Shown here piece by piece: positions 17,553 through 54,423 of a stretch of 54,423 nt of DNA; position 1 is the stretch's first letter; every line of letters starts with the position of its first letter. The notes beneath the pieces were generated by a model that worked only from the letters and a program-made list of their open reading frames with translations, made no database searches and had not been told where the DNA came from. Origin of the DNA: Candidatus Levyibacteriota bacterium (GTDB lineage Bacteria > Patescibacteriota > Microgenomatia > Levybacterales > GWA1-39-11); assembly GCA_030645455.1 (NCBI GenBank), contig JAUSNA010000018.1, positions 1 to 54,423 on the forward strand. The letters run 5' to 3'. The position numbers and the translations under genes were made by a program.

Positions 17553-19808
17553 TTATTGACGAGCTTCTTGTTCGATGGATATATTTTTCTGATTTAATGG
17601 CAAAATGAGCGGTAGAAAAGGAATACTTCCGGTAAATTGAATTGTTGCATCGGTAATTCCCGAAATTTCTTTTAATTTACCGATAGCCGCATCACGTCCT
17701 TTACCTGCTATTTCCGATGGTACATTTTTTACATCAAGTTGAGGCTTGAAAATCGCATTAAACGAAAGTTTTGCGCTGATATTATTTCTATTTTGCTTGA
17801 TGTCGGTAATTGTTATTGAGCTATCATCACCGGAAAGCTTAAAATCTTCGGGTACATCAAATTCACTTGAAGAAGAAATAAAGTTGGACAACTCGTCTTT
17901 TTTGTATACGCCAAGAGTATACTCAATTGAAGCATTTAGCGTAATATTTTCAGCTTCTTCATTCTCTTTCTTGTCATATTTCTTTTCCTTAAAATCGACC
18001 GAAAGAAAGGTAGGCATCAATGCTTCATTTTGAGAAATACGTGATTCAGCGTCACTTTTCGCCTTATCAAAGAGTCTTTCAGTCACGGTTTCCTCCAAAG
18101 CAAGCAAATCCTTTTTAGCAACAACCTGAATCTCTTCTTTGCTTCCTCCCGAAAAAGCAGCGTCATTGCGCCCAAAGACGGTGGAAGTTGGCATCCCCTC
18201 GATAGTAAAGTTTGTTTGGGAAGGGAGATTGTACTCTTTCCCGAAATTTGAAGCTGTTACTTTAACCTGTGCGTTTGAAAATGATGTCGCAAAAGAACTG
18301 GTCGAAGCGATATTGACGGCATCATTAAGAGTAAATTTCAAATTATTAGAAGAAGTAATAGTTGTCCCCTTATCAATCTGCCTCGGACTTTCCGATTTGT
18401 TAAAAATTGTAATAGCACCTATTGCCTTCTCGCCTGTATCTTTCTGACCGGTTGTTTCCTGCGATTCTTCTCCTTCAACCTCCTGGACTACAGTTGAGAT
18501 CCGTAATGTTTTATCCTCAAATGATGATTCACCGCTTGTAGTAAGCGTTATTGCCATAGCATTTTCAGCAAATGCTTTTTGATCCGTAAAAATCGTTACT
18601 TTTGCTTTTAATAAAACGGTGTAATAAGCAGTTAGAAGAAGAGCAACGACGAAAAGTGCCGCAAATGGGATTATTAGTCTTCTCCCGTTTCCAACCATTT
18701 TGGGAATGCGGCCAACTGATTGAGGCGTAATAAGACCTGCAAAAAATGTTCCTATTCCGGCAGCTAGTGACTTCCCTTCCTTTCTGTTGGGGTCGGGGGT
18801 ATCTTCTTCAAAAACCTCTTCACCGGCAGCATCACTAGGTTCGTCTTGCCCGTGATGGCGTACGATCGGCTCATGTCCAACCTCTTCTGCAAAATCAAAC
18901 CCCTCGTCAGCAGGTGTTGCAGCAGGGCTTGGAGGCTGCGTGGGCTGAACACTGGCAATATCTTCGTCCATCAGAAATCCAAAAGTATCCTTACTCTCCG
19001 AAACAAACTCCTCATTTTCACCAATTACCTCGCTCGTTGCAATGTTAATATCTCCACTCACGGTAACATTTAATTGAGAAGCAACACCGTTAATTATTGC
19101 CTCATTTTCAAATCCACGGTCGAGAATTGCAACTTGCGGAAGATGCATGAAAGGCAATTCTTTGGTCCAATGATGAGAGAGAAACTTCTGAGATACTTCT
19201 TCTGCTTCTTTATTGTGAAGGAGTATTATTTTTGAGGGTAAAACGTCGAGTTGCGTGACATTACCCAATAAACGTTCGACCGTTTTTTCCACACCATCCT
19301 CAATCGGCCCTTGTTTTATATCGATAATATTCCCGCTTCTTACTATAAAAACACTGAGGTATTTCTCGGATAAATCAACAAAAATTCCGCTTACCGGCAC
19401 CCCTTCTTTCCTTTGAAGTGATGCAATAATCGCCTCAATCGATACTATAAAGCCCATTGGGGTAAGTGCTAATTCCTCACTCACTTTTTTAAGCTGTGAT
19501 AGTCTATTTGCTTTAATTTTTCCCTCCTCAACCCATGAATGAGGAACAGAAAAAATTGTTTTTTCAAGTATTGCACCCTCGGGAAGACTCATTTCAAGGC
19601 GGGAAATAACAGTATCACATGTTGTTACGAAATCCTCTACAGAAGCGTTATCCAAATCAATCGCGGCCTCATAAGATGCCAAAATTACAAGAACTTTTTC
19701 CTGTTCCTTAAAAAGGATAGAAGAAATTTTTTCCGACTCAAAAATAAGAGACAGAAAAAAATCAGTTGAAACAGTCTTGGTTAAAAATGGTATAGCAGGC
19801 AGCTTCAT
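17553..19808 (-). CDS. large single-pass membrane protein: cytoplasmic actin/FtsA-like N-domain, acidic Pro-rich linker, TM helix, extracytoplasmic domain tentatively baseplate-J-like
   Basis: I placed the start at ATG 19808 (MKLPAIPFLTK), because the upstream TTG-initiated 14 codons are AT-rich word-repeat spacer. TM helix LIIPFAALFVVALLLTAYYTVLL. The C-terminal block GEKAIGAITIFNKSE...GTTITSSNNLKFTLNDAV...VKVTASNFGKEYNL resembles proteins annotated as baseplate J family in CPR genomes (from memory, unverified). Confidence 0.7.
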   Translation of the reverse strand: MKLPAIPFLTKTVSTDFFLSLIFESEKISSILFKEQEKVLVILASYEAAIDLDNASVEDFVTTCDTVISRLEMSLPEGAILEKTIFSVPHSWVEEGKIKANRLSQLKKVSEELALTPMGFIVSIEAIIASLQRKEGVPVSGIFVDLSEKYLSVFIVRSGNIIDIKQGPIEDGVEKTVERLLGNVTQLDVLPSKIILLHNKEAEEVSQKFLSHHWTKELPFMHLPQVAILDRGFENEAIINGVASQLNVTVSGDINIATSEVIGENEEFVSESKDTFGFLMDEDIASVQPTQPPSPAATPADEGFDFAEEVGHEPIVRHHGQDEPSDAAGEEVFEEDTPDPNRKEGKSLAAGIGTFFAGLITPQSVGRIPKMVGNGRRLIIPFAALFVVALLLTAYYTVLLKAKVTIFTDQKAFAENAMAITLTTSGESSFEDKTLRISTVVQEVEGEESQETTGQKDTGEKAIGAITIFNKSESPRQIDKGTTITSSNNLKFTLNDAVNIASTSSFATSFSNAQVKVTASNFGKEYNLPSQTNFTIEGMPTSTVFGRNDAAFSGGSKEEIQVVAKKDLLALEETVTERLFDKAKSDAESRISQNEALMPTFLSVDFKEKKYDKKENEEAENITLNASIEYTLGVYKKDELSNFISSSSEFDVPEDFKLSGDDSSITITDIKQNRNNISAKLSFNAIFKPQLDVKNVPSEIAGKGRDAAIGKLKEISGITDATIQFTGSIPFLPLILPLNQKNISIEQEARQ

Positions 19809-19892
19809 GAGTAATTGATTAATGATAAATGATTTATGATTAATGAACAAAGATTAATTTCTATTAATCATTAGCTATTAGCCATCAACCAT

Positions 19893-44709: not shown

Positions 44710-46317
44710 TTATTGAACAAGCAGAGTGGTAGAAGTATTGGTTGGTGTGTATGTAAATCCGGATTTTACAATATTTGTAACGGTTGCTGTAAATATCCCT
44801 TTTTCTTTCGAACGGACTGAAACTTGAACCTCACCCGTTGATGAAGTATTTTTGGTAAATGCTGTCATCTTTCCTGAAGGTGAAGTAATAGACATTGATA
44901 CCGTAGCTGAGGAAACTACAGCGTTTGTTGAAGTATCGGCTATTCTAGCTTTTGCATAAATTGTTTTGGTGGATGTAAACCCTGTGAAGCGCATAGTAAG
45001 GGCTGTAACAGTCATTTCCTTAGAAACCGGCGTGGATGTAGGAGTGGGGGTAGGACTTGAAATCACGGTTGGAGTAGGAGTAATCGCATCAACTAAAACA
45101 ACCGACTTGTAAGCATTAATTTTTCCCTTTTGCCAATAAGTACCCGTTCCGGCAATCCCATCCGCATTTGATTCAATTTTTTCTCTCACGCATACATTTG
45201 TGGTACAGTCCCCCTTGCCCCATACAAGACCCGCAAGTCCTGCAACAAATGGTGAGGCCATCGATGTTCCAGAAAGAGATGCATACGAATTTCCCTTGAA
45301 TGATGAATATATTGAAACTCCGGGAGCTGCAACATCTACCCATGACCCATAATTTGACCAGCTTGCTTTATTGTTGTTGCTGTCAATTGCAGCGACTGCT
45401 ATAACATTTGTATAGTACGCTGGGTAATGAGGACTTTGCGAAGAGCTGTTTCCGGCCGCAGCAACAATAACCACTCCCTTTTGCCATGCATAATCTATTG
45501 CGTCTTGAAGTGCGGCTGATGAAGACGTACCTCCCAGACTCATATTAATAACTTGTGCTCCGTTGTCAGCAGCCCATACTATGCCATTTACTATCCATGA
45601 ATAATAACCCGACCCGTCATCACCCAGCACCTTTCCATTCATAAGTGACGCATCATAAGCAGTCCCCCCAATACCAACTCCATTATTTGTCGAGGCAGCA
45701 GCAATTCCTGCCACGTGGGTTCCATGACCGTCAACATCAGCCGACGTTGAGCTGGTTGTAAAATTTGCCGATGCAACTATTTTCCCCTGCAAATCACTGT
45801 GAGATGGATCAATACCCGTATCAAGAACTGCAATCTTTACGCTAGATGAACCGGTTGTAACATCCCACGCACTTGTTCCTCCATTTTCCGCAGCATCTAT
45901 TGAGAAAAGTCCCCATTGAGTTGAAAGGGAAGGATCATTTGTAACCATTGATTTTGCCGCAACAGCGTTGGGTTCTGCATATTCTACGTGTGGACTTCTC
46001 CTATATATCTCCACTAATTTGTCAACCATCCCATCAGGTACTCCTAAAACCTCTACCCGGATGGGGTCAATCTTTAGCTTCACCTTTCCACCCAAATCTT
46101 TTACCACTTTTTCACGTATGGATGTTGCTATTTGCGGCTTGAATTTAACAATTATTTCATTTGTAGAAAATTTTTGAGCTTGTGCTTGCCTTGAGGGAAA
46201 AACGAAGTTAAAAATAACTCCGCCAATAAGAGCAAATAATAATGCGTGAATTACGAATGAATGGAGAGAGAAAAACTTATATCGGAACTTTTTTACAGTT
46301 CTCTTTTTAGATTTCAT
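44710..46317 (-). CDS. secreted subtilisin-like serine peptidase (S8) with I9-type propeptide and C-terminal beta-rich domain
   Basis: 535 aa. N-terminal TM/signal, catalytic triad blocks AVLDTGID, HGTHVAG, SGTSMASP, a PTPTVISSPTPTPTSTP linker and a C-terminal Thr/Ser-rich domain. Confidence 0.9.
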   Translation of the reverse strand: MKSKKRTVKKFRYKFFSLHSFVIHALLFALIGGVIFNFVFPSRQAQAQKFSTNEIIVKFKPQIATSIREKVVKDLGGKVKLKIDPIRVEVLGVPDGMVDKLVEIYRRSPHVEYAEPNAVAAKSMVTNDPSLSTQWGLFSIDAAENGGTSAWDVTTGSSSVKIAVLDTGIDPSHSDLQGKIVASANFTTSSTSADVDGHGTHVAGIAAASTNNGVGIGGTAYDASLMNGKVLGDDGSGYYSWIVNGIVWAADNGAQVINMSLGGTSSSAALQDAIDYAWQKGVVIVAAAGNSSSQSPHYPAYYTNVIAVAAIDSNNNKASWSNYGSWVDVAAPGVSIYSSFKGNSYASLSGTSMASPFVAGLAGLVWGKGDCTTNVCVREKIESNADGIAGTGTYWQKGKINAYKSVVLVDAITPTPTVISSPTPTPTSTPVSKEMTVTALTMRFTGFTSTKTIYAKARIADTSTNAVVSSATVSMSITSPSGKMTAFTKNTSSTGEVQVSVRSKEKGIFTATVTNIVKSGFTYTPTNTSTTLLVQ

Positions 46318-46672: not shown

Positions 46673-48241
46673 ATGAATAAACTAAAAAGATTTTTAATAG
46701 GAGCAACAGCAGGAGTAGCAATACTTGCAAGAGTAGTGCTTCCTGCAGGTGCTGATAGCACAGTAGTAATCTCTGGTAATACCTCAGCTGGTGAAAATCA
46801 GCCTGGATGGTTATTTAACAGAGACATTTCTACAACCACTCCATTCGAGTTCAATTCGGCTCAACCTAGTATTGGTACAGGAAGTTTATACGTTATGCCA
46901 ATTGGTGCGAATGCATCAGACAAGTTCATAGCTGAGAACTTTGTAAATACTCCAATTGCAAACGTTAATTCTATTTCTTACGACTTCCGAATAGGAAGTG
47001 GCGGGGATGCGAATGATGATGAACACTTCTATATGAATGTGTATGCAAATTTTGGATCATCACCAGATAACAAGTTTTATGATTGTCGCTATAACGTAGT
47101 GCCAACAACAGGCTCAACTGCCAGTTTTACAACTGTAACATTTAATCCTTCTTTGGCTTATCCCGTAACACAAAGTGGCTCATCACCATTTACGTGTCCG
47201 TCGATACCTAATGATATGAATACTTCAAGCCCTATCTCAACCATAAGAGTTTTTACTCTTAATGTTGGTGACACATCGGTAAATGATCAGGGTTTGGATG
47301 GGTATCTGGATAAAGTTGTAGTTAATCTTGATGATTCATCGGGTATTACTACCTATGATTTTGAACCACTTCCAGAGACGGTCACTGTGACCATTGATAA
47401 ATATATTGATGGTACAAAGGCTACAGCGACAACCGCTGACAACTCAGCTTTTCCGATGAGTGCGACATGGAACGCAACAAATATCGGAGCGGGTTCTGGT
47501 AATTATGATTTGGATGCTGATGGATTCAACAATATCCCAACACCATATCAGGCAATTACTTCAGAAATGACAGCTGGAGCTGATTACACTACGAATGAAG
47601 TAACTGGCGGCTCAGTTGTGGGAGCTAGTTGTTCTACTGGTCAACCATATGCATTGGTTGGGTATACGACTGGGGATACTTTCTCAGAAGCCCAAAGCGG
47701 TACACCAAGTTCTACTATTCCAAGTTTCACAGATCTTGACAGTGATAAATATGTGATTGTCTGGAACATGACTTGTCCAGATGTTACACCAACTCCAAAT
47801 CCTTTTGCTATTCCTGCAGAATGCAGTGCAATAACAGGACTTGGTGCTCCAATCGTTGGTACGAATGGCAGCGAGGTCATCAATGGAACTAATGGAAACG
47901 ACCTCATTTTCGCACTAGGCGGAAGTGATGTAGTCAATGGTAAAGAAGGCAACGACTGTATAGTCGGAGGAGATGGAAGTGATTCTCTCCATGGACAAGG
48001 TGGAAATGACGTAATTCTTGGAGGAAATGGCAGCGATGCCATCCAAGGAGATGCCGGTAATGATTGGCTTTACGGCCAAGATGGAAGCGACTCCGTAAAG
48101 GGAGCTTCCGGCAACGATCATCTTTTCGGAGGAAATGGATCCGACTCTCTCAAGGGAGATGGAGGAACAGATAGCGCTGATGGAGGCGCAAATAGCGATT
48201 CATGCAACGCAGAAACTGAAGATGTTTCCTGCGAAGCATAA
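46673..48241 (+). CDS. secreted protein with C-terminal hemolysin-type (RTX) calcium-binding nonapeptide repeats
   Basis: 522 aa. Sec-type signal MNKLKRFLIGATAGVAILARVVLPAGA. About 11 consecutive 9-residue repeats (GGSDVVNGK EGNDCIVGG DGSDSLHGQ GGNDVILGG NGSDAIQGD AGNDWLYGQ DGSDSVKGA SGNDHLFGG NGSDSLKGD GGTDSADGG). SD GGGGGTGA. Confidence 0.85.
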   Translation: MNKLKRFLIGATAGVAILARVVLPAGADSTVVISGNTSAGENQPGWLFNRDISTTTPFEFNSAQPSIGTGSLYVMPIGANASDKFIAENFVNTPIANVNSISYDFRIGSGGDANDDEHFYMNVYANFGSSPDNKFYDCRYNVVPTTGSTASFTTVTFNPSLAYPVTQSGSSPFTCPSIPNDMNTSSPISTIRVFTLNVGDTSVNDQGLDGYLDKVVVNLDDSSGITTYDFEPLPETVTVTIDKYIDGTKATATTADNSAFPMSATWNATNIGAGSGNYDLDADGFNNIPTPYQAITSEMTAGADYTTNEVTGGSVVGASCSTGQPYALVGYTTGDTFSEAQSGTPSSTIPSFTDLDSDKYVIVWNMTCPDVTPTPNPFAIPAECSAITGLGAPIVGTNGSEVINGTNGNDLIFALGGSDVVNGKEGNDCIVGGDGSDSLHGQGGNDVILGGNGSDAIQGDAGNDWLYGQDGSDSVKGASGNDHLFGGNGSDSLKGDGGTDSADGGANSDSCNAETEDVSCEA

Positions 48242-48301
48242 AAATGCGTTTGCCGAAACGTAGATCGGAGAAAAAGATAGCTTGAAGGGAGGTGAATAAA
48301 T

Positions 48302-48910
48302 ATGAATATCAAACAAAAATTAACAAGTGCAGCCGTAATAGGTGCAATGATGGCGGCTGTAGTAGCCCCGGCATCATTTGCCGCAACTGTTAAAATCAAG
48401 AAAAACGGTGCAGGTTCTACCAATACAGCAACTGTTGTAAGTAAGAAAAAAACAATAGTTAGCCAATACAATGGAACTGCAGTTGTAAATCTTGTTGGAG
48501 TACTCCAAAATACCGGAGTAAATTCTGCAAATGGTAATACCGGAGATGGCAGCGTAGACGTTAACTCAGGTGCTGCTACATCAACAGTTACCAACACGAC
48601 AACAACCGGAGGAAATAACGCAACCGTTAATCCTTGCGGGTGCGTAGATCCGAGTACTAATGTTGTCATCAAGAAAAACGGTGCAGGTTCTACCAACACT
48701 GTAACAGTTGTAAGCACAAGTAAGACAGAGGTTGAACAAGTTAACGAAACTCTTGTTATCAACGGAGTGCTTGTCGCTCAGAATACCGGCGGAAATTCCG
48801 CAAACGGTAACACCGGTGACGGTGGAGTAAATGTTGACTCTGGCAATGCTACATCAACAGTTACCAACACGACAACAACCGGAGGAAATGCATACACTCC
48901 TACTCTATAA
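48302..48910 (+). CDS. secreted protein made of two copies of the N/T/G-rich GNGAGSTN module
   Basis: 202 aa. Signal peptide ending ASFA-A. Two 91-aa repeats ([10 protein letters not shown]...QNTG.NSANGNTGDG.V.V.SG.ATSTVTNTTTTGGN) separated by PCGC. Strong SD GGGAGGTG. Confidence 0.85.
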   Translation: MNIKQKLTSAAVIGAMMAAVVAPASFAATVKIKKNGAGSTNTATVVSKKKTIVSQYNGTAVVNLVGVLQNTGVNSANGNTGDGSVDVNSGAATSTVTNTTTTGGNNATVNPCGCVDPSTNVVIKKNGAGSTNTVTVVSTSKTEVEQVNETLVINGVLVAQNTGGNSANGNTGDGGVNVDSGNATSTVTNTTTTGGNAYTPTL

Positions 48911-48946
48911 GTAGGCAGGGACATTCCAAAAGTTACTAAGTGTAGA

Positions 48947-48978
48947 AAACCCCCCATTGCCCGGGGGGTTTTTCTTTT
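48947..48978 (+). terminator. intrinsic terminator after the 202-aa repeat-protein gene
   Basis: AAA-CCCCCC-ATTGCCC-GGGGGG-TTTTTCTTTT: a 6 G-C pair stem plus a T-tract. Confidence 0.75.
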
Positions 48979-48994
48979 GTCTAAACCCATAGTT

Positions 48995-49023
48995 TTGACT
49001 TGCGCCCCCATTTCTTATATAAT
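48995..49023 (+). promoter_or_regulatory. near-consensus sigma70 promoter upstream of the GC-enriched cassette
   Basis: TTGACT (48995-49000), 17 nt, TATAAT (49018-49023). Confidence 0.6.
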
Positions 49024-49119
49024 CACACAACTTTTTGCTTAGCTCATACGTTTTAATTTGCTTTAAAACCGATTGGTCTATTTGCTAACTGTAACGCACC
49101 TTTACAACACATTCTTGTA

Positions 49120-49172
49120 GAGTTTTATCTCGCAGAGCCCCGAGTAAATCGGGGTTGTGTGAGATAAAACTC
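49120..49172 (+). promoter_or_regulatory. 53-nt extended hairpin in the cassette leader
   Basis: GAGTTTTATCTC (49120-49131) pairs perfectly with GAGATAAAACTC (49161-49172). There is an inner 6-bp stem CCCCGA/TCGGGG with loop GTAAA. No U-tract follows, so it is not a terminator. Confidence 0.5.
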
Positions 49173-49196
49173 AAATCAACATGAAGGGAAATTACT

Positions 49197-49361
49197 ATGA
49201 AACAGTTAATCATGGACATCGCTGCTGTTCTCATTCTATTTGTAGCTGGACTCATCGAGTTCACCCAATGGAGAAGGGGGTCCCCGCCAAGGGTATGCAT
49301 TATGCTCATTTTAATCAGCATCGCAATAATAATCGTGGTACATATAAGCATCATCACCTAA
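49197..49361 (+). CDS. small two-helix membrane protein (54 aa; below ORF-track cutoff)
   Basis: ATG 49197 is preceded by AAGGGA. Product MKQLIMDIAAVLILFVAGLIEFTQWRRGSPPRVCIMLILISIAIIIVVHISIIT has two hydrophobic helices around a basic loop. I prefer it over the His-rich 86-aa ORF (49181) and the antisense 90-aa ORF. Confidence 0.45.
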   Translation: MKQLIMDIAAVLILFVAGLIEFTQWRRGSPPRVCIMLILISIAIIIVVHISIIT

Positions 49362-49394
49362 GTTCACGACCAGAGTTTGATCTAAGGAGTAGAA

Positions 49395-49589
49395 ATGCCG
49401 GAAGTCACAAGGATCGATATCTTCGAAATGGTTCGGGGTAATTTCCCCAACCTTTCCGAAGAAACACAGCTTGAACTGGCGGATAAAATAAAGTCACTGC
49501 TGGAGTTTGCGGCAAATGATAAGATAACGGACCTTAAATGGGTAAAGAGGGTGATTGATGCCCTGGCCGTATCTGCTCGACTTCAATGA
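49395..49589 (+). CDS. hypothetical protein (64 aa)
   Basis: Strong SD TAAGGAG 5 nt upstream of ATG 49395. Helical-looking, acidic. No motif recognised. Confidence 0.55.
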   Translation: MPEVTRIDIFEMVRGNFPNLSEETQLELADKIKSLLEFAANDKITDLKWVKRVIDALAVSARLQ

Positions 49590-49685
49590 GAGGACTCAGA
49601 ACGAGTCCTAGGACTCTTCTTATCTATCCGAACATCGCATAAATTCACACCCGCGTATAACGCCAGAAGGCCTGAGGAGGCACAG

Positions 49686-50195
49686 TTGAAAAAGATCCTT
49701 GTTCTTATCCTGACCATTGTGGCCGTGTCTTTCACCGCTTGCGGCGACAGACCGGACACTCAAGAACCAAAAGTTCCAACTCAGGCTCCGAGAATTCCAA
49801 CGCCGGCAGCACCCGCTCAGCCAGGCATCACAATGCCTCGTAGTAGTAGTTGCACAAACAGCGCCGTCATACTAACAGGGATTGCCCTGGATCAGACGGT
49901 ATTCGATAGCCAGGTGACTAGTTTCAACCTCTTGGGTTGCTTCACGAGACCGGATATCTTCGTCGAAGCGTCCCCTCAGCTAGGGTACGTCTTGAGTTTG
50001 GCGATTGCCGATCGCAACGCAAAACACCCCTTCAAGGACGTTGAAGAGCTGACGAAGTTCTCCGAGGAATTCCTCACGGATTTCGTAAAAGTCACCCTCG
50101 GTGATTCGTATCTAGTCCTTGAGAACGTCAAAACAACGTACCAATTGAGGCTCTTTCCGGTCATAAAAAAGAAAACGACCGGACCAACTGCCTAA
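49686..50195 (+). CDS. putative lipoprotein (169 aa)
   Basis: TTG start with SD GAGGAGG 5 nt upstream. Signal peptide plus lipobox-like MKKILVLILTIVAVSFTAC-GD, a Pro-rich linker and a globular C-terminus. About 53% GC against a ~39% background. Confidence 0.65.
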   Translation: MKKILVLILTIVAVSFTACGDRPDTQEPKVPTQAPRIPTPAAPAQPGITMPRSSSCTNSAVILTGIALDQTVFDSQVTSFNLLGCFTRPDIFVEASPQLGYVLSLAIADRNAKHPFKDVEELTKFSEEFLTDFVKVTLGDSYLVLENVKTTYQLRLFPVIKKKTTGPTA

Positions 50196-50328
50196 CACAG
50201 GAATGTGGGCCCGCATAGCGGGAAACAAACCCGCCTACGCGAAAGCTACGGCGAGGTAAAGGTGTATCTCGGGGGAGGTGAGGATCAAGCTCTACTTGAT
50301 TTCCTTTCCTCTCCCATACACTAACTCT

Positions 50329-50358
50329 AGGTAATAGTTATTAGTGATTAGGAAATAG
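50329..50358 (+). repeat. copy 2 of the ~30-nt stop-codon-rich intergenic element (AGGTAATAGTTATTAGTGATTAGGAAATAG)
   Basis: 27/30 identical to the reverse complement of 37908-37937. Confidence 0.6.
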
Positions 50359-50374
50359 TAAAGATCAGAAAAAG

Positions 50375-50406
50375 ATTGCTTCTCCCGATTTAATCGGGAT
50401 CGCAAT
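50375..50406. repeat. REP-like nested hairpin between the convergent lipoprotein and sortase genes
   Basis: ATTGC-TTC-TCCCGA-TTTAA-TCGGGA-TC-GCAAT. The outer GATTGCTTC...GCAATGACA flanks resemble a palindromic word element I recall as common in uncultivated-bacteria genomes. Confidence 0.45.
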
Positions 50407-50438
50407 GACATAAATCCACAATACTTAATACGTGATAC

Positions 50439-50993
50439 TTATTCCGGATTTGCAAAAATCAACAATCGTTGCAAGGCTGTACCTATTGGTGTACACGTCT
50501 GCAGAATAAGAACGTCCCCCTGAGGTTCTGTCAAATACTTAACTTCATTTGGCCAAACTGTTTTTTTGTTAATAACTTTATACTTATACTCCTCCCCATT
50601 CATTCTGATAATAATAGGGTCCCCTCTATCTATCAGCTCCAGCTTGAAAAAAGCTGTATTATAACGTGTAATTCTCCACGGAACATCCGATGAATGAGCA
50701 AAGAGAAAGACAGTCTCCCCCTCCCCGGGCAATGCTGAATTTTTTGCGTGTGCTACTCCATTTCTTAGCTCCAGTAAATACTCTTTTTCATTGAATGGAT
50801 CGACACTAGGTATAATTTTTGAAAATACTTTTAGACTTGGGATTTCAATTGAGAAATTTTCTGATATTTTTTGCTCTTCCGTTATTTTTGGAGGAAATAA
50901 TAATTCTTTGAAATACGGGTAATAGATAAAAAGGAATCCTAAAAGAGAAAGCGCCATCAAGGCGCTTCCGGTGTTTTTTTTGAGGTTGTGCAT
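50439..50993 (-). CDS. sortase family transpeptidase (second copy)
   Basis: 184 aa. N-terminal TM helix, His in VFLFAHSS, Cys in LILQTCTPIG, Arg in LQRLLIFA. It starts 27 nt downstream of the LPATG protein gene. Confidence 0.85.
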   Translation of the reverse strand: MHNLKKNTGSALMALSLLGFLFIYYPYFKELLFPPKITEEQKISENFSIEIPSLKVFSKIIPSVDPFNEKEYLLELRNGVAHAKNSALPGEGETVFLFAHSSDVPWRITRYNTAFFKLELIDRGDPIIIRMNGEEYKYKVINKKTVWPNEVKYLTEPQGDVLILQTCTPIGTALQRLLIFANPE

Positions 50994-51020
50994 ACGTAAA
51001 TCGTATCAAGGGGGCTACCT

Positions 51021-52157
51021 TTATGCAATGGTAGGCGGTGGGGCATTGGAACCATGAAACCGCAGATACAGCCCGGAAAGGAACATAAAGAATAAAAGAA
51101 GAGTTGCAATAAGTGTGTATGGAATAGTTGAACCGGTTGCCGGAAGCATTGCACCTACCGCAGGTCCATTAGGGCCAGTGCTTCCTGAAGACGGTTGTAC
51201 ATAGGAATCCCCAGGTTTGACAGTTGGATTTGTAGGGGGTGTTACCGGTGGAGTTACCGGTGGAGTTGGAGGCTCTTCTTTATCCGGATTGCATGTGCCG
51301 CACTCAATTTTTGTGAAATTGCTGTTAATATTCTCGTTATTGATTGTTATGTCGCTTTGTATGTTTCCGGTAACAATAGCAGTGTCTCCCAGATTTTTGA
51401 GTGTTTCATTTCCTCCCGTGTTCAACTGCTGTTCTACATTATTTAATATTTCTGCGATATTAATATTTGTGACTATTATATTTGAGTTATCGTTGATAAC
51501 CGCATTGTTAAATGAATACGCTCCATTTCCTTTTATAATTACCGAATTTCCCCCCATTATATCGACTTGCCCGTCGTAGTAAGAGTTGTTGATATTTTTA
51601 TTATTGATGTTAGTTGTTGCTGATATATTACCCGTTACGATTGTGGAATTACCCCCATTGAATGATGCTTTGTTATATCCCGTATTAGCGTTAACAGTTA
51701 TGTTATTGTTAATTGAAGCGTAGTTATTTTGGCTGACCAAATGTGTCGAAGAACTATTAGCAACTCCTAAATTTGTTGATCCTGCTCCATTCCCACTGAT
51801 ATTTACCGATGTATTGCTGTTGCAGCAACTTGTAGTTGATGCTAGGTTGGAATTAATATTTTCGTTACTAACATTAGTAGTGCTTGCTGTGTCCCCTGTT
51901 GAAATAGCAGTTTCCCCACCGGTATTAAGATTTGCGTCATTATTTCCGGTATCTGCATTTGAATCAACATTGTTGGTAACATTTGCCTCATTACTTTGGG
52001 CAACCTCTGTGGTCGTTTGAGTTTGGACTTGGACTTGATTATTGGAGCTTCCCCCATTGCCTGTGACCTCTATAACTATTTCTTCGGCTTTGGCACTTGA
52101 GGTTATCGAGAGGTTGAGTAGTAGGCAGGTGATAAAAATCGCTGCCTTTTTCATCAT
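51021..52157 (-). CDS. LPXTG-type sortase substrate built from three N/T/G-rich modules
   Basis: 378 aa. Signal peptide ending SSAKA-E, 3 modules (GNG[GA].S.N...Q.N.A.[VI].N...A.TG.N...TG), a PTPPVTPPVTPPTNPT linker, then LPATG (51132-51146), a 23-aa hydrophobic stretch and RFHG. This is a canonical cell-wall sorting signal. Confidence 0.85.
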   Translation of the reverse strand: MMKKAAIFITCLLLNLSITSSAKAEEIVIEVTGNGGSSNNQVQVQTQTTTEVAQSNEANVTNNVDSNADTGNNDANLNTGGETAISTGDTASTTNVSNENINSNLASTTSCCNSNTSVNISGNGAGSTNLGVANSSSTHLVSQNNYASINNNITVNANTGYNKASFNGGNSTIVTGNISATTNINNKNINNSYYDGQVDIMGGNSVIIKGNGAYSFNNAVINDNSNIIVTNINIAEILNNVEQQLNTGGNETLKNLGDTAIVTGNIQSDITINNENINSNFTKIECGTCNPDKEEPPTPPVTPPVTPPTNPTVKPGDSYVQPSSGSTGPNGPAVGAMLPATGSTIPYTLIATLLLFFMFLSGLYLRFHGSNAPPPTIA

Positions 52158-54379
52158 AAGAACATATGTATTCCTCTTACTGCGAGTCTTTGGACAGGAA
52201 CAAATGATTTTTTAGCGAGTAGCACAATTCCAAAAAGTGGAAGCGCAAGAAGTATCCATGCAAGATTAATGGTGAGTTTTTTATCAGCTACTGCTGCAGA
52301 ACCGTCTTGCCCTACGCTTTTTGCAACAGTAGCCTCAAGTGTATTGGTTCCTCCTCCGGATTGTGTTCCTTTTATTGCACCCGCAAGACTGGTATTGCCC
52401 GAATTATTAACAACTACTGTTGATCCTGCACCTGCTTGGTTTCCTGTTGCTGATGCAACTGTAGATGATCCACCACCGGCACCTGAATTTACTTGAGGGC
52501 TCTCGTAATTTGTGTTATTTTCATGCTGTAACGTCCCACCGTCAGCTACATTATTTTTAGTCTGTCCCGGTGCTACAAAGTCACCGAGCCAGCTTCCGAA
52601 TACATTGATGACTGTCACAACCAATTTTCCGCCTCCTGTTATATTATTGTTAACAAAGTTGACAAGATTTGCGATAATTTTTGCGTCTCCCGTTACGATA
52701 TCTGAATTTCCACCTGTATTAAATTTAGAGTCATTTCCTCCGGTATTGGCCGATAAATCAAGTGTATTATTTACAACCGCGTTATTTGTCTGAGTTGTTG
52801 TGTTGTTGGTTGTATTTGATGCGCTTGCCGTATTTGTAGAATTTGCTCCATTAGCGTCATTTACAGCTGTTACTTCGCCTGTTATCGGGTCAACAATGAA
52901 TTCTGTGCCATCAGATCCTGCCATGCTGGACCCATCCGGTGAGCCAAGAATTTTACCTATCCATTTGCCGCCCTCGTTGACAATGACAAGCCACCAATTG
53001 CCTCCCATTATATTGTTGTTAGCGATATTAAGTATATTTGCCGTAAGTGAAGCATCCCCTGTTTCAATCGATGAATTTCCATCGGTATTAAAACTCGTGT
53101 CATTTGCTCCCGTATTTGCATCAATGAGAAGTGTGTTATTTATCTGGGCATCATTTGTCTGAGTTGTTGTATTGTTGGTTGTATTTGTAGCATCGGCTGT
53201 GTTGGTTGAATATGCTCCATTTCCTGTATTTGATGCGGTTGTTGTACCCGTACACGTACCTCCGCAAGCTGCATTCATTGCCTCTTCGGTAAGAATGATG
53301 TCACCGACTAGATCACCGTAGATATTTACTACTCCGAATATAACGTCACCTGCTATATTATTGTTAGCAAAGGTCATAACATTTGCATTTACATTTGCAT
53401 CCCCTGTTGTGATGGATGAATCTCCTCCCGTATTAAAGCTTGCGTCATTATTTCCGCTATCGGCGCCCAGTACTAAAGTGCTACCTACATTTGCATCATT
53501 TGTTTGGGTGGTATTATTGTTGGTTGTGTTGGTCGCGTCTGCAGTATTTGTAGACCCTGCTCCGTTATTTGCATTATTTACATTAAGTGCGGATCCTTCA
53601 CATCCCTGAGTGCAATTGGCACCAAAGTCAAGAACGATGTCTCCTGTGTGATCATCTACCACATTGAATTCACTAACCATTATTCCATCAACATTTGTAT
53701 TAACTGATGTAATAACAGTTGCCGTAGTATTGGCGTCCCCGGTTGTAATAGAAGAGTTGCCAACATTATATGAAGTGTTGTTGCCTCCCGTGACAGTTGC
53801 TTGGTTAAGGTCGTTACTGACAACCGCGCTATTCCCTTGCAATGTGTCGTTATTATTTGTGGTTGTTGCTGATCCGCTATTGGTAGACCCTGCTCCATTT
53901 CCTGTGTTTGCAACTGCTGCACCTGTCCCTGCGCAAGTATTGCATCCTGTTGCCAAATTATTATTCCCCGTTGTATTGATGTTACTATCATTATTTCCAT
54001 CTCCGGTATTTATTGCCGTATCCCCAACATTTCCTGACCCTGACGATCCTTCTTGAGCCGGTTGTTCATCGGTAGATGATGTTGTTACTGGTGCTTCTGG
54101 AGCAGTTGGTGCTGTTGGGGCGATATATGGATTCTCTGGAGCAGTTGGTGCGGTTGGAGCACTTGGCGCTTCTGGAGCAGTTGGTGCTTCTGGAGCAGTT
54201 GGTGCTGTTGGGGCAGTTGGTGCTTCGGGAGCTGTTGGTGCTTCGGGAGCTGTTGGGGCATCGGGAGCTGTTGGGGCATCCTCAGCAAATACTGCTGCCG
54301 GAATTGTGACTAATTTGCCTGATAACAACACCAGTATCAAAAGTGTTGATATTATTTGTTTGATTTTTTTTATATTCAT
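52154..54379 (-). CDS. large surface protein: signal peptide, (A/E)PTAP repeat stalk, four long N/T/G-rich modules, C-terminal TM anchor
   Basis: 741 aa. [32 protein letters not shown] signal, a proline-rich repeat, 4 modules of ~110-120 aa each starting N.GNGA.STN, and a C-terminal TM helix [21 protein letters not shown]. 4-nt ATGA overlap with the LPATG gene. Confidence 0.85.
54089..54283 (-). repeat. in-frame tandem repeat encoding [12 protein letters not shown] units (9/18-nt periodicity)
   Basis: Peptide [66 protein letters not shown]. The plus strand shows reiterated GGAGCAGTTGGTGCTTCT-type units. Confidence 0.8.
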
Positions 54380-54423
54380 ATTTTCCTAAATTTTTAATTT
54401 TCGATTTTAAATTTTTAATTTTC

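Follow-up and report, generated by a model that had tools for sequence, protein, structure and literature searches.

The stretch of DNA analysed here (the window, 54,423 nucleotides (nt) in full) is a chromosomal contig, JAUSNA010000018.1, of an uncultured Candidatus Levybacteria bacterium with a GC content of about 40%, and it encodes three secreted paralogous proteins, here named p202, p378 and p741 after their lengths in amino acids (aa), which share an asparagine-rich repeat module. Judging from sequence comparison, this module appears to be a new and large domain family, restricted to the candidate phyla radiation (CPR) and placed in a conserved surface system linked with a sortase. As our best reading of the system, to which we would give a probability of roughly 0.45, the module adopts a stacked beta fold with large rungs, one module per layer, and the anchored paralogs p378 and p741 seed or hold a polymer of the free p202. 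The parts of this reading stand differently: we infer the in-register stacking of the modules from structure models, and the polymerisation of p202 onto the anchored paralogs is speculative.

A preliminary description of the sequence had placed the module in three secreted paralogs on both strands, with nine full copies (two, three and four per protein) and a partial copy in p741. Our results bear this out, as the three open reading frames (ORFs) are real, each has a Sec-type signal peptide at its N-terminus, and a profile made from the nine copies matches all of the proteins and places every copy. The copies are longer than the 75 aa or so first estimated, with an envelope of 80-85 aa, and they recur with a period of 88-91 aa in p202 and p378 and of 110-123 aa in p741. 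In p202 (202 aa; 48302..48910, plus strand; 100% identical to the NCBI entry with locus tag Q7T54_01585), the signal peptide at residues 1-27 (..ASFA/A) is followed by module 1 (residues 29-109; 48386..48628), a cysteine pair P-C-G-C between the modules (48632..48643), whose C112 and C114 are invariant or nearly so in the family, and module 2 (residues 120-199; 48659..48898), with no anchor. In p378 (378 aa; 51021..52157, minus strand), the signal peptide precedes three modules at residues 29-112 (51822..52073, S-C-C at its end), 117-200 (51558..51809) and 205-289 (51291..51545, C-G-T-C at its end), after which come a Pro-rich stalk (51213-51272), an LPATG motif, a transmembrane (TM) segment and a basic tail. 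The largest paralog, p741 (741 aa; 52154..54379, minus strand), has its own signal peptide and a Pro-rich N-terminal region of the (A-P-T-A-P-E)n type, then a half module (residues 116-149; 53933..54034), which is the C-terminal half of a copy, ends with C-N-T-C and is conserved in 78 homologs, and then four modules at residues 156-236 (53672..53914), 266-348 (53336..53584), 382-465 (52985..53236) and 505-587 (52619..52867). Each of the four is followed by a hydrophobic hairpin, at residues 230-252 (53624-53692), 343-363 (53291-53353), 459-479 (52943-53005) and 582-602 (52574-52636), and the cysteine motifs CTQGC (53600-53614) and CGGTC (53252-53266) stand after the first and the second. The hydrophobic segment described before for each p741 copy is indeed real and conserved, as a hairpin-like motif of about 21 residues with the pattern G-x-hhhhhhN-xxG-x-h-x-G-x-hhh. 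A linker of about 100 aa rich in G/S/T finally precedes a C-terminal TM anchor (52214..52270), which has an INLAW motif conserved in the family and is without LPxTG.

A consensus of the module was derived from 1,281 distinct sequences (1,291 instances) in 393 proteins, and the one previously made by hand agrees with it nearly residue for residue. Its N-terminal part reads G6-N7-G8-A9-x-S11-x-N13 ... Q27-x-N29-x-A31-x-V33-x-N35, and its C-terminal part T43-G44-x-N46-x-A48-x-x-N51-T52-G53 ... I57-x-T59-G60-D61-A62 ... V68-x-N70-x-x-N73-x-N75. When a hidden Markov model (HMM) is built from the four p741 copies alone, p378 scores 63.4 bits and p202 scores 23.6 bits, and the highest score among 600 residue-shuffled versions is -11.3 bits; together with pairwise BLASTP matches among the proteins at E from 1e-9 to 4e-5, these sequence comparisons confirm a similarity beyond any effect of composition. 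Moreover, cysteine pairs are conserved at several module boundaries (PCGC, SCC, CGTC, CNTC, CTQGC, CGGTC) and could staple the linkers between modules, which fits the reported enrichment of an MdbA-like disulfide oxidoreductase in CPR (PMC6744442).

The profile search that had been proposed for mapping the spread of the module was run exhaustively, and it detected the module in 3,121 cluster representatives at 50% identity with E<=1e-3, and in 2,026 of them at E<=1e-10, with 3-10 matched stretches per protein. The named members belong to Levybacteria, Amesbacteria, Gottesmanbacteria, the Microgenomates group and the Patescibacteria group, plus one metagenome-assembled genome (MAG) of the Parcubacteria group. 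A few odd labels occur on syntenic MAG contigs, namely one 'Nitrososphaeria' (homolog P0158) and four 'Gammaproteobacteria'; the loci of the latter (L004-L007 in our numbering of related loci; CAYRJZ010000006.1 and others, titled 'uncultured Gammaproteobacteria') share the gene order of the Levybacteria locus at 41-60% identity. All of these oddly labelled MAG records are probably mislabelled or mis-binned. A match with an existing Pfam or TIGRFAM repeat, which had been named as one result that would overturn the proposal, was not found for any of the three proteins: the scans of p202, p378 and p741 against Pfam-A (2025) and NCBIfam 20.0 gave no relevant match, and essentially all of the listed homologs carry no precomputed Pfam assignment. 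The single assignment of PF22251, on one homolog, is below its threshold and was dismissed as spurious. Neither the nine-copy nor a 70-copy module profile matches anything among PDB sequences at E<=10, and we found no account of the family in the literature on Patescibacteria sortase/amyloid or on asparagine-rich beta-helices. A family of this size (at least 3,121 clusters), which lacks a Pfam or NCBIfam model as well as any relative of solved structure, makes the module a clear candidate for a new domain family.

The module genes form a conserved cluster in related genomes. Four related loci were obtained from a contig search with 25 close sequences, and more from the contigs that encode homologs. 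The order of the cluster is a TM protein of about 200 aa, a DUF2292 protein of about 65 aa, a four-module protein of about 415 aa, a p741-like protein of about 720-750 aa with four or five modules, an LPxTG protein with one to three modules, and the sortase, followed on the opposite strand by a divergent two-module protein of about 200 aa. This synteny is seen in the window, L001, L004-L006 and L008-L010, in MAGs named Levy-, Gottesman- and Amesbacteria, unclassified Patescibacteria and three titled Gammaproteobacteria; in L009 no gene for the LPxTG protein is called. The three genes upstream of the p741 homolog are located, for example, at 5208-7669 in L001, 15525-18026 in L004 and 7450-9892 in L010; the first of their products ends with FPINDxDKN...GKKE, and the third, the four-module paralog, is often very acidic (TGDNDADDNTGGD) and has an aromatic C-terminal tail. 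In the window no more than 44 nt (54380-54423) lie upstream of p741 before the contig stops, thus the first three genes of the cluster are cut off, and a fourth paralog of about 415 aa with four modules is expected just past the end.

Each of the three paralogs stands for a subfamily of its own with wide conservation, and how they are held at the cell can be predicted from their termini. p378 shows the features of an LPxTG substrate, with the signal MMKKAAIF...SSAKA at one end, and at the other the LPATG sorting motif (residues 338-342; 51132..51146, minus strand), STIPYTLIATLLLFFMFLSGLYL and then RFHG.... Among the 120 listed homologs of p378, 89 have three modules and about 90 have an LPxTG-type motif, most commonly LPATG (47) and for instance LPVTG in 15, and L338, P339, T341 and G342 are invariant or nearly so across 82 homologs; a Pro-rich stalk is likewise usual in this subfamily. 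p378 is accordingly predicted to be a sortase substrate attached to the wall. The sortase gene itself (50439..50993, minus strand) lies 27 nt downstream of p378, and such adjacency of a sortase and an LPxTG paralog is seen in the window, L001-L006 and L010. It encodes 184 aa with an N-terminal TM segment and the H (LFAHSSD), C (LQTCTP) and R (LQRLL) motifs, matches Pfam Sortase at E 6.7e-20, and scores 49.1 with TIGR01076, of which the cut-off is 39.35; the class-specific sortase models of NCBIfam all stay below their cut-offs, with class C for example at 59.7 against 160 bits. A GC-rich hairpin with a T-run (50947-50969, minus strand) is located just 3' of the p378 stop, within the first codons of the sortase, and it may attenuate transcription and so keep the structural gene expressed above the sortase.

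p741, the stop of which overlaps the p378 start (ATGA), is predicted to stay in the membrane, held there by its C-terminal helix. The p741-like family comprises at least 651 homologs, and its members combine a Pro-rich N-terminus, four or five modules with hydrophobic hairpins, a G/S/T linker and the INLAW TM helix. The anchor in this family opens with INLAW(L/I)xLxxP where LPxTG might stand, and this segment could act simply as a TM anchor or else as a sorting signal recognised by some other enzyme. By contrast with both, p202 carries no anchor and is predicted to be released from the cell. Its gene has its own strong ribosome-binding site (GGGAGGTG) and its own terminator, an intrinsic-terminator-like hairpin with a T-run at 48945..48973 (plus strand), on the strand opposite to p378 and p741. 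There are at least 245 p202-like homologs of about 200 aa, and among the matches listed 119 of 120 have two modules and none of 120 has LPxTG.

As for the fold, the preliminary description had suggested a beta-solenoid or stacked beta structure, and two lines of evidence, the conservation pattern and the covariation, can be read from the module alignment itself. The spacing inside the module is nearly invariant, with 20 residues from column 7 to 27 in 1253 of the 1291 instances and 17 residues from column 27 to 44 in 1271 of them. A strict two-residue periodicity is seen, in which the conserved columns are the odd ones (N13 V15 V17 N21 T23 V25 Q27 N29 A31 V33 N35 V37 V39 A41); over columns 13-41 the mean entropy is 2.0 bits at odd versus 3.4 bits at even, hypervariable columns (p = 8e-5). 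At the inward positions N29 is conserved to 98%, N13 to 95%, N35 to 92% and Q27 to 77%. Buried invariant Asn is a hallmark of the ladders in parallel stacks such as beta-helices and amyloids, and the conserved Asn/Gln-rich face of the module would fit a beta fold of the stacked or solenoid type in which Asn residues form ladders. In addition, when the 1,281 modules are analysed by mean-field direct coupling analysis (DCA), a single long-range feature dominates, an antiparallel ladder (i+j about 103-105) that pairs columns 25-48 with 55-77; it involves inward columns only, each coupled to both j and j+2, and shows volume compensation in its pairs (L-A, A-V and Q-G at 39-66; A-A and Q-G at 41-62). 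A small hairpin pairs columns 2-4 with 13-15. The covariation thus describes an antiparallel pairing of two arms of about 20 residues inside each module and not a solenoid of short rungs. In fact a short rung of 16-17 residues was considered, as the conserved N13, N29, N46 and D61 are spaced by 15-17 residues; it was rejected as the main fold because the separations in the antiparallel ladder reach 52 residues and because of the 31-residue strands in the structure models described below.

The AlphaFold2 models of p378 (alignment of 82 sequences) and p202 (117 sequences) are all-beta, with a mean predicted local distance difference test (pLDDT) of 72.3 and 74.0 and block means over 10 residues of about 79-92 in the module cores. 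Every modelled module has an uninterrupted strand of 31 residues, and all strand boundaries recur exactly from one module to the next, at an offset of 91 residues for p202 and of 89 and 88 residues for p378. Inside one module the possible antiparallel partner strands are 7, 10 and 5-8 residues long with gaps, which is too short to pair with all of the 31; the sole strand of that full length with which it could pair is its counterpart in the adjoining module, and the models would therefore have the modules stacked in register. The N-terminus of mature p202 is about three residues before the first strand and its C-terminus about three after the last, so that in the model p202 has no cap. Foldseek searches with both models against PDB, and with the p202 model against BFVD, gave no significant match; the list is led by FapC and followed by MpAFP, tapirin, SufBD, ice-binding proteins, CsgA and pectate lyases, almost all of which are parallel beta-helices or functional amyloids. 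Moreover, the loop-length states are concordant between the modules of one protein across orthologs; for p202 the concordance is 0.76 versus 0.37 in permuted data, and none of 2000 permutations reaches it. Of the fold proposed in the preliminary description, the ordered beta structure and the Asn/Gln face stand, and the stacking of repeat on repeat has the status of a deduction; likewise disorder, which together with a lack of stacking would have told against the proposal, is not seen in the models.

With these data a picture of the system can be proposed. Each module would be one large flat layer, in which the chain passes through a short strand and the GNGAGSTN turn before it enters an arm of about 31 residues, and the chain would turn back along this arm after the tip of the pattern TGxN...NTG...TGD, with the inward faces of the two arms interdigitating. 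On these faces small or hydrophobic residues would alternate with the near-invariant Asn/Gln. The end of a module would run into the first strand of the next one, so the layers would wind as a solenoid, in register and with Asn/Gln ladders, to give a beta-solenoid, or a stack like that of a functional amyloid, whose rungs of 88-91 residues would be unusually long. All of the module proteins would be exported by Sec; the adjacent sortase would couple p378 through its LPATG, at the end of the Pro-rich stalk, to peptidoglycan, and the C-terminal helix would hold p741 in the membrane. The released p202, with two layers, no caps and no anchor, might then add to the open ends of the anchored stacks by contacts of layer on layer, and the outcome would be a surface fibre or coat. 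Since the uncapped two-layer p202 would expose two beta edges and strictly co-occurs with anchored proteins of the same module, co-assembly seems to be the most economical explanation.

Several points weigh against this picture. The stacking was deduced from DSSP strings and from the kind of matches in the fold search; none of those matches is significant (best E = 0.01 in PDB and 0.004 in BFVD, with TM-scores <=0.25), and the confidence of the models is moderate (predicted TM-score, pTM, 0.50; pLDDT about 60-67 in the linkers between modules). The covariation from arm to arm fits equally well a long hydrogen-bonded hairpin or a face-to-face arch. A two-module DCA has i-to-i' couplings at nearly every column, and as these in-register couplings are confounded by paralog or subfamily signal we count them neither way on stacking. 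The concordant indels could come from gene conversion, and a flat layer does not account for the couplings between the GNGAGSTN loop and the NTG tip (for example 10-50, with D-K and F-F pairs). The stacks of two to five layers might also be stabilised by other partners.

In the main alternative, possible in our judgement and still on the doubtful side, the proteins do not polymerise at all: they would be self-contained stacked-beta or solenoid bodies of two to five layers, displayed or shed, that serve as adhesin, as a surface for recognising hosts or particles, or as a protective coat, and the paralogs would act independently, sharing the module by descent. The same fold evidence supports it as supports the stacked polymer, and the hypervariable outward columns (3.4 bits) are as expected for a recognition or antigenic surface; the conserved hydrophobic hairpins and the half module of p741 could serve as caps, the nearby genes encode secreted proteins (RTX, S8 protease, TasA-like) and no obvious assembly machinery, and many Gram-positive LPxTG proteins are stand-alone adhesins. 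However, an uncapped p202 of two layers, about 1 nm thick, would bare two full beta edges, which is unusual for a stable monomer, and co-assembly accounts more readily for the way in which the free form and the forms anchored in wall and membrane strictly go together throughout Microgenomatia.

Less probable again, and on balance unlikely, is that the modules do not stack and are independent domains, as long two-stranded antiparallel beta-ribbons or compact small beta-sandwiches in a stalk like beads on a string, of the kind made by the Ig-like, CnaB, Rib or DUF11 repeats of Gram-positive surface proteins, with the long strands of AlphaFold being artefactual. Tandem beta repeats of about 85-90 aa on LPxTG proteins usually are independent domains, and the dominant covariation is indeed antiparallel and within the module; weaker local ladders near columns 36-40 and 64-75, together with the couplings of loop to tip, hint at a compact fold, and the moderate model confidence and low-scoring linkers would agree. 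Nevertheless a near-invariant Asn/Gln on a buried face is atypical of sandwich cores, no Ig-like, CnaB or other repeat family is matched by sequence or fold, the fold-search matches are almost all parallel solenoids, and the identical strand boundaries and concordant loop lengths between modules also tell against it. We regard it as very improbable that the main role is the binding of a lattice-like ligand (a Ca2+/carbonate mineral, ice, polysaccharide or peptidoglycan) by a flat Thr/Asn/Asp-rich beta surface, much as in RTX adhesins, antifreeze proteins or ice-nucleation proteins: Ca-dependent beta-helical antifreeze and ice-binding proteins are among the non-significant Foldseek matches, related loci have a four-module paralog of strongly acidic character, the conserved neighbours include an RTX Ca-binding protein, and TG-x-N/D turns are spaced by 8-9 residues, but the Pfam models for RTX and ice nucleation remain unmatched within the modules, and the outward faces, being hypervariable, do not form regular TxT/TxN arrays. 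That the repeats are merely compositional, as disordered Asn/Thr-rich low-complexity linkers, could be suggested by N+T+G+S making 47-51% of the residues, but it is refuted in that shuffled sequences score far below the real ones and conservation and lengths hold in 1,291 modules; covariation ladders and ordered beta predictions are found as well.

It is instructive to compare the proposed stacked-beta system with the known surface systems. Its likeness to curli lies in secreted, uncapped, imperfect repeats rich in Q/N/G/A, whose inward Ser/Gln/Asn/Ala are conserved in strand-turn-strand layers in CsgA, and in the logic by which a cell-bound paralog (CsgB) seeds the free one (CsgA), which we propose by analogy for the module proteins. 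The differences are that the rungs have 88-91 residues here against 19-23, and that a sortase or a TM helix would do the anchoring, in a cell that has neither an outer membrane nor secretion genes of the CsgG/E/F type. The resemblance to curlin repeats suggested earlier is retained as an analogy only: none of the three proteins matches Curlin_rpt (PF07012) at E<=1, the Foldseek matches with CsgA and FapC are not significant, an hhalign comparison of the module profile with E. coli CsgA (with an approximate CsgA sequence) gives a probability of 0.08%, and in place of a csgBAC/csgDEFG-type context the neighbours are the sortase, an RTX protein, an S8 protease and a lipoprotein, with DUF2292 in related loci. 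FapC of Pseudomonas (PDB 9u4u, 9nqd) is the top Foldseek match of both models and likewise consists of a few long repeats with one large layer each, whereas the matches are non-significant (E 0.01 and 0.08; TM-score <=0.17), sequence similarity is absent, no fapA-F context exists at the module locus, and taxon and envelope differ. The chaplins of Streptomyces offer perhaps an analogy of architecture, as one amyloid-forming domain is shared by sortase-anchored long ChpA-C and short secreted ChpD-H, with Cys pairs and a Gram-positive-type envelope; yet the chaplin domain is hydrophobic and of about 40 aa, PF03777 is unmatched by the module proteins, and membrane-anchored and four-module paralogs are additional in the module system. 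TasA/TapA/SipW also combine a secreted fibre protein with an anchoring partner, and TasA-like and SipW-like genes are present a few genes off in L001 and L007, but TasA is a jelly-roll that assembles by donor-strand exchange and the modules have no PF12389 (Peptidase_M73) match; within the window's cluster there is no TasA-like gene, the other ORFs of the window having been scanned in part.

The sortase-linked adhesins and pili resemble the module proteins in that an LPxTG substrate is encoded beside a sortase, that beta repeats of about 85-90 aa occur in tandem, and that a Pro-rich stalk spans the wall. The module proteins differ in having no SpaA, CnaB, Ig-like, Rib or DUF11 match by sequence or fold, and p378 has no YPKN pilin motif. 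A sortase-assembled pilus was thus ruled out, on the grounds that pilin domains, the pilin motif and a class C sortase match are all missing. The newly reported Pam pili are CPR-specific extracellular filaments as well, found also in Microgenomatia, Sec-exported and with paired cysteines, and their pilins PamA and PamB, of 39-55 kDa, consist of two domains, one a beta-sandwich and the other an open Ig-like barrel, and assemble by donor-strand exchange (bioRxiv 10.64898/2026.03.03.709456). They were rejected as the same system, since Pam pilins are not Asn-rich repeat modules and are not linked with a sortase. Finally, RTX beta-rolls, MpAFP and ice-binding proteins share regular Gly/Asn/Asp turns and flat beta surfaces and gave non-significant Foldseek matches, and they differ in rung length and covariation, with HemolysinCabind and Ice_nucleation unmatched in the modules. 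Altogether, as far as sequences and profiles tell, the system seems to follow a logic like that of curli, Fap and chaplins and to be a member of none of them.

The CPR make up a large share of bacterial diversity, and to our knowledge almost nothing is known of their surfaces beyond type IV pili and the Pam pili; we also know of no description of the substrates of the Microgenomates sortase. The locus provides a conserved, sortase-adjacent LPxTG candidate substrate together with its paralogs. As the sortase is near-ubiquitous in Microgenomates (PMC6744442), the fibre or coat reading, if true, would identify a conserved substrate of a near-universal enzyme of this group. Moreover, if the stacked layers are true, an ultra-small symbiont of Gram-positive type would have a functional-amyloid-like system, with rungs several-fold longer than those of characterised beta-solenoids. 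A wider extrapolation, put forward tentatively and with considerable doubt, is that a dedicated system for a fibre or coat, hitherto undescribed, exists in Microgenomatia and in certain other CPR, either a new class of functional amyloid or a giant-rung beta-solenoid of about 90 residues per layer, in which a sortase-anchored seed, a membrane-anchored base, a two-layer subunit and a four-layer acidic paralog would co-assemble with the assistance of the DUF2292 protein and the TM protein of about 200 aa.

Besides the module genes themselves, the neighbourhood contains further genes for extracellular proteins. On the plus strand at 46673..48241 a secreted RTX protein of 522 aa is encoded, with an unannotated N-terminal domain and C-terminal RTX Ca-binding nonapeptide repeats (Pfam HemolysinCabind, E 5.3e-18); its homolog adjoins the two-module gene in L001, L004, L005, L007 and L010, and it may be a partner of the module proteins. 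Beside the surface-protein cluster there is also a secreted S8 subtilase (44710-46317, minus strand) with a fervidolysin-like prodomain and a C-terminal Ig-like region, which might process the surface proteins of the cluster; its gene is not conserved in the related loci examined. In several of these loci the two-module gene is followed by a gene for a secreted S/T/N-rich protein of about 150-166 aa with a hydrophobic/aromatic C-terminus (..SFFSSFFN), for instance at 10747-11226 in L004, 10713-11177 in L006, 10749-11249 in L007 and 14437-14889 in L010; this gene is absent from the window, where a lipoprotein-like ORF of 169 aa (49686-50195) stands in its place. Moreover in L001 (12466-15414) and L007 (6852-9766), genes for a TasA/camelysin-like protein (Peptidase_M73), a SipW-like signal peptidase and LTD proteins lie beside the RTX and two-module genes, which points to a wider neighbourhood of genes for extracellular fibre or matrix.

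Elsewhere the window contains core genes such as rpoB/rpoC, alaS, ftsK and those for RNase J, PNPase, IF-2 and NusA, and scans of the whole window for Rfam families and tRNAs came out empty. Long antisense ORFs of up to 214 aa run over the repeat genes (48118-48762 on the minus strand, 52269-54056 on the plus strand, and others) and are by-products of the codon composition of the repeats, not genes. Amid the housekeeping genes, in an unexpected context, an ORF of 765 aa (17553-19850, minus strand) has a Baseplate_J-like stretch (Pfam E 3.9e-7).

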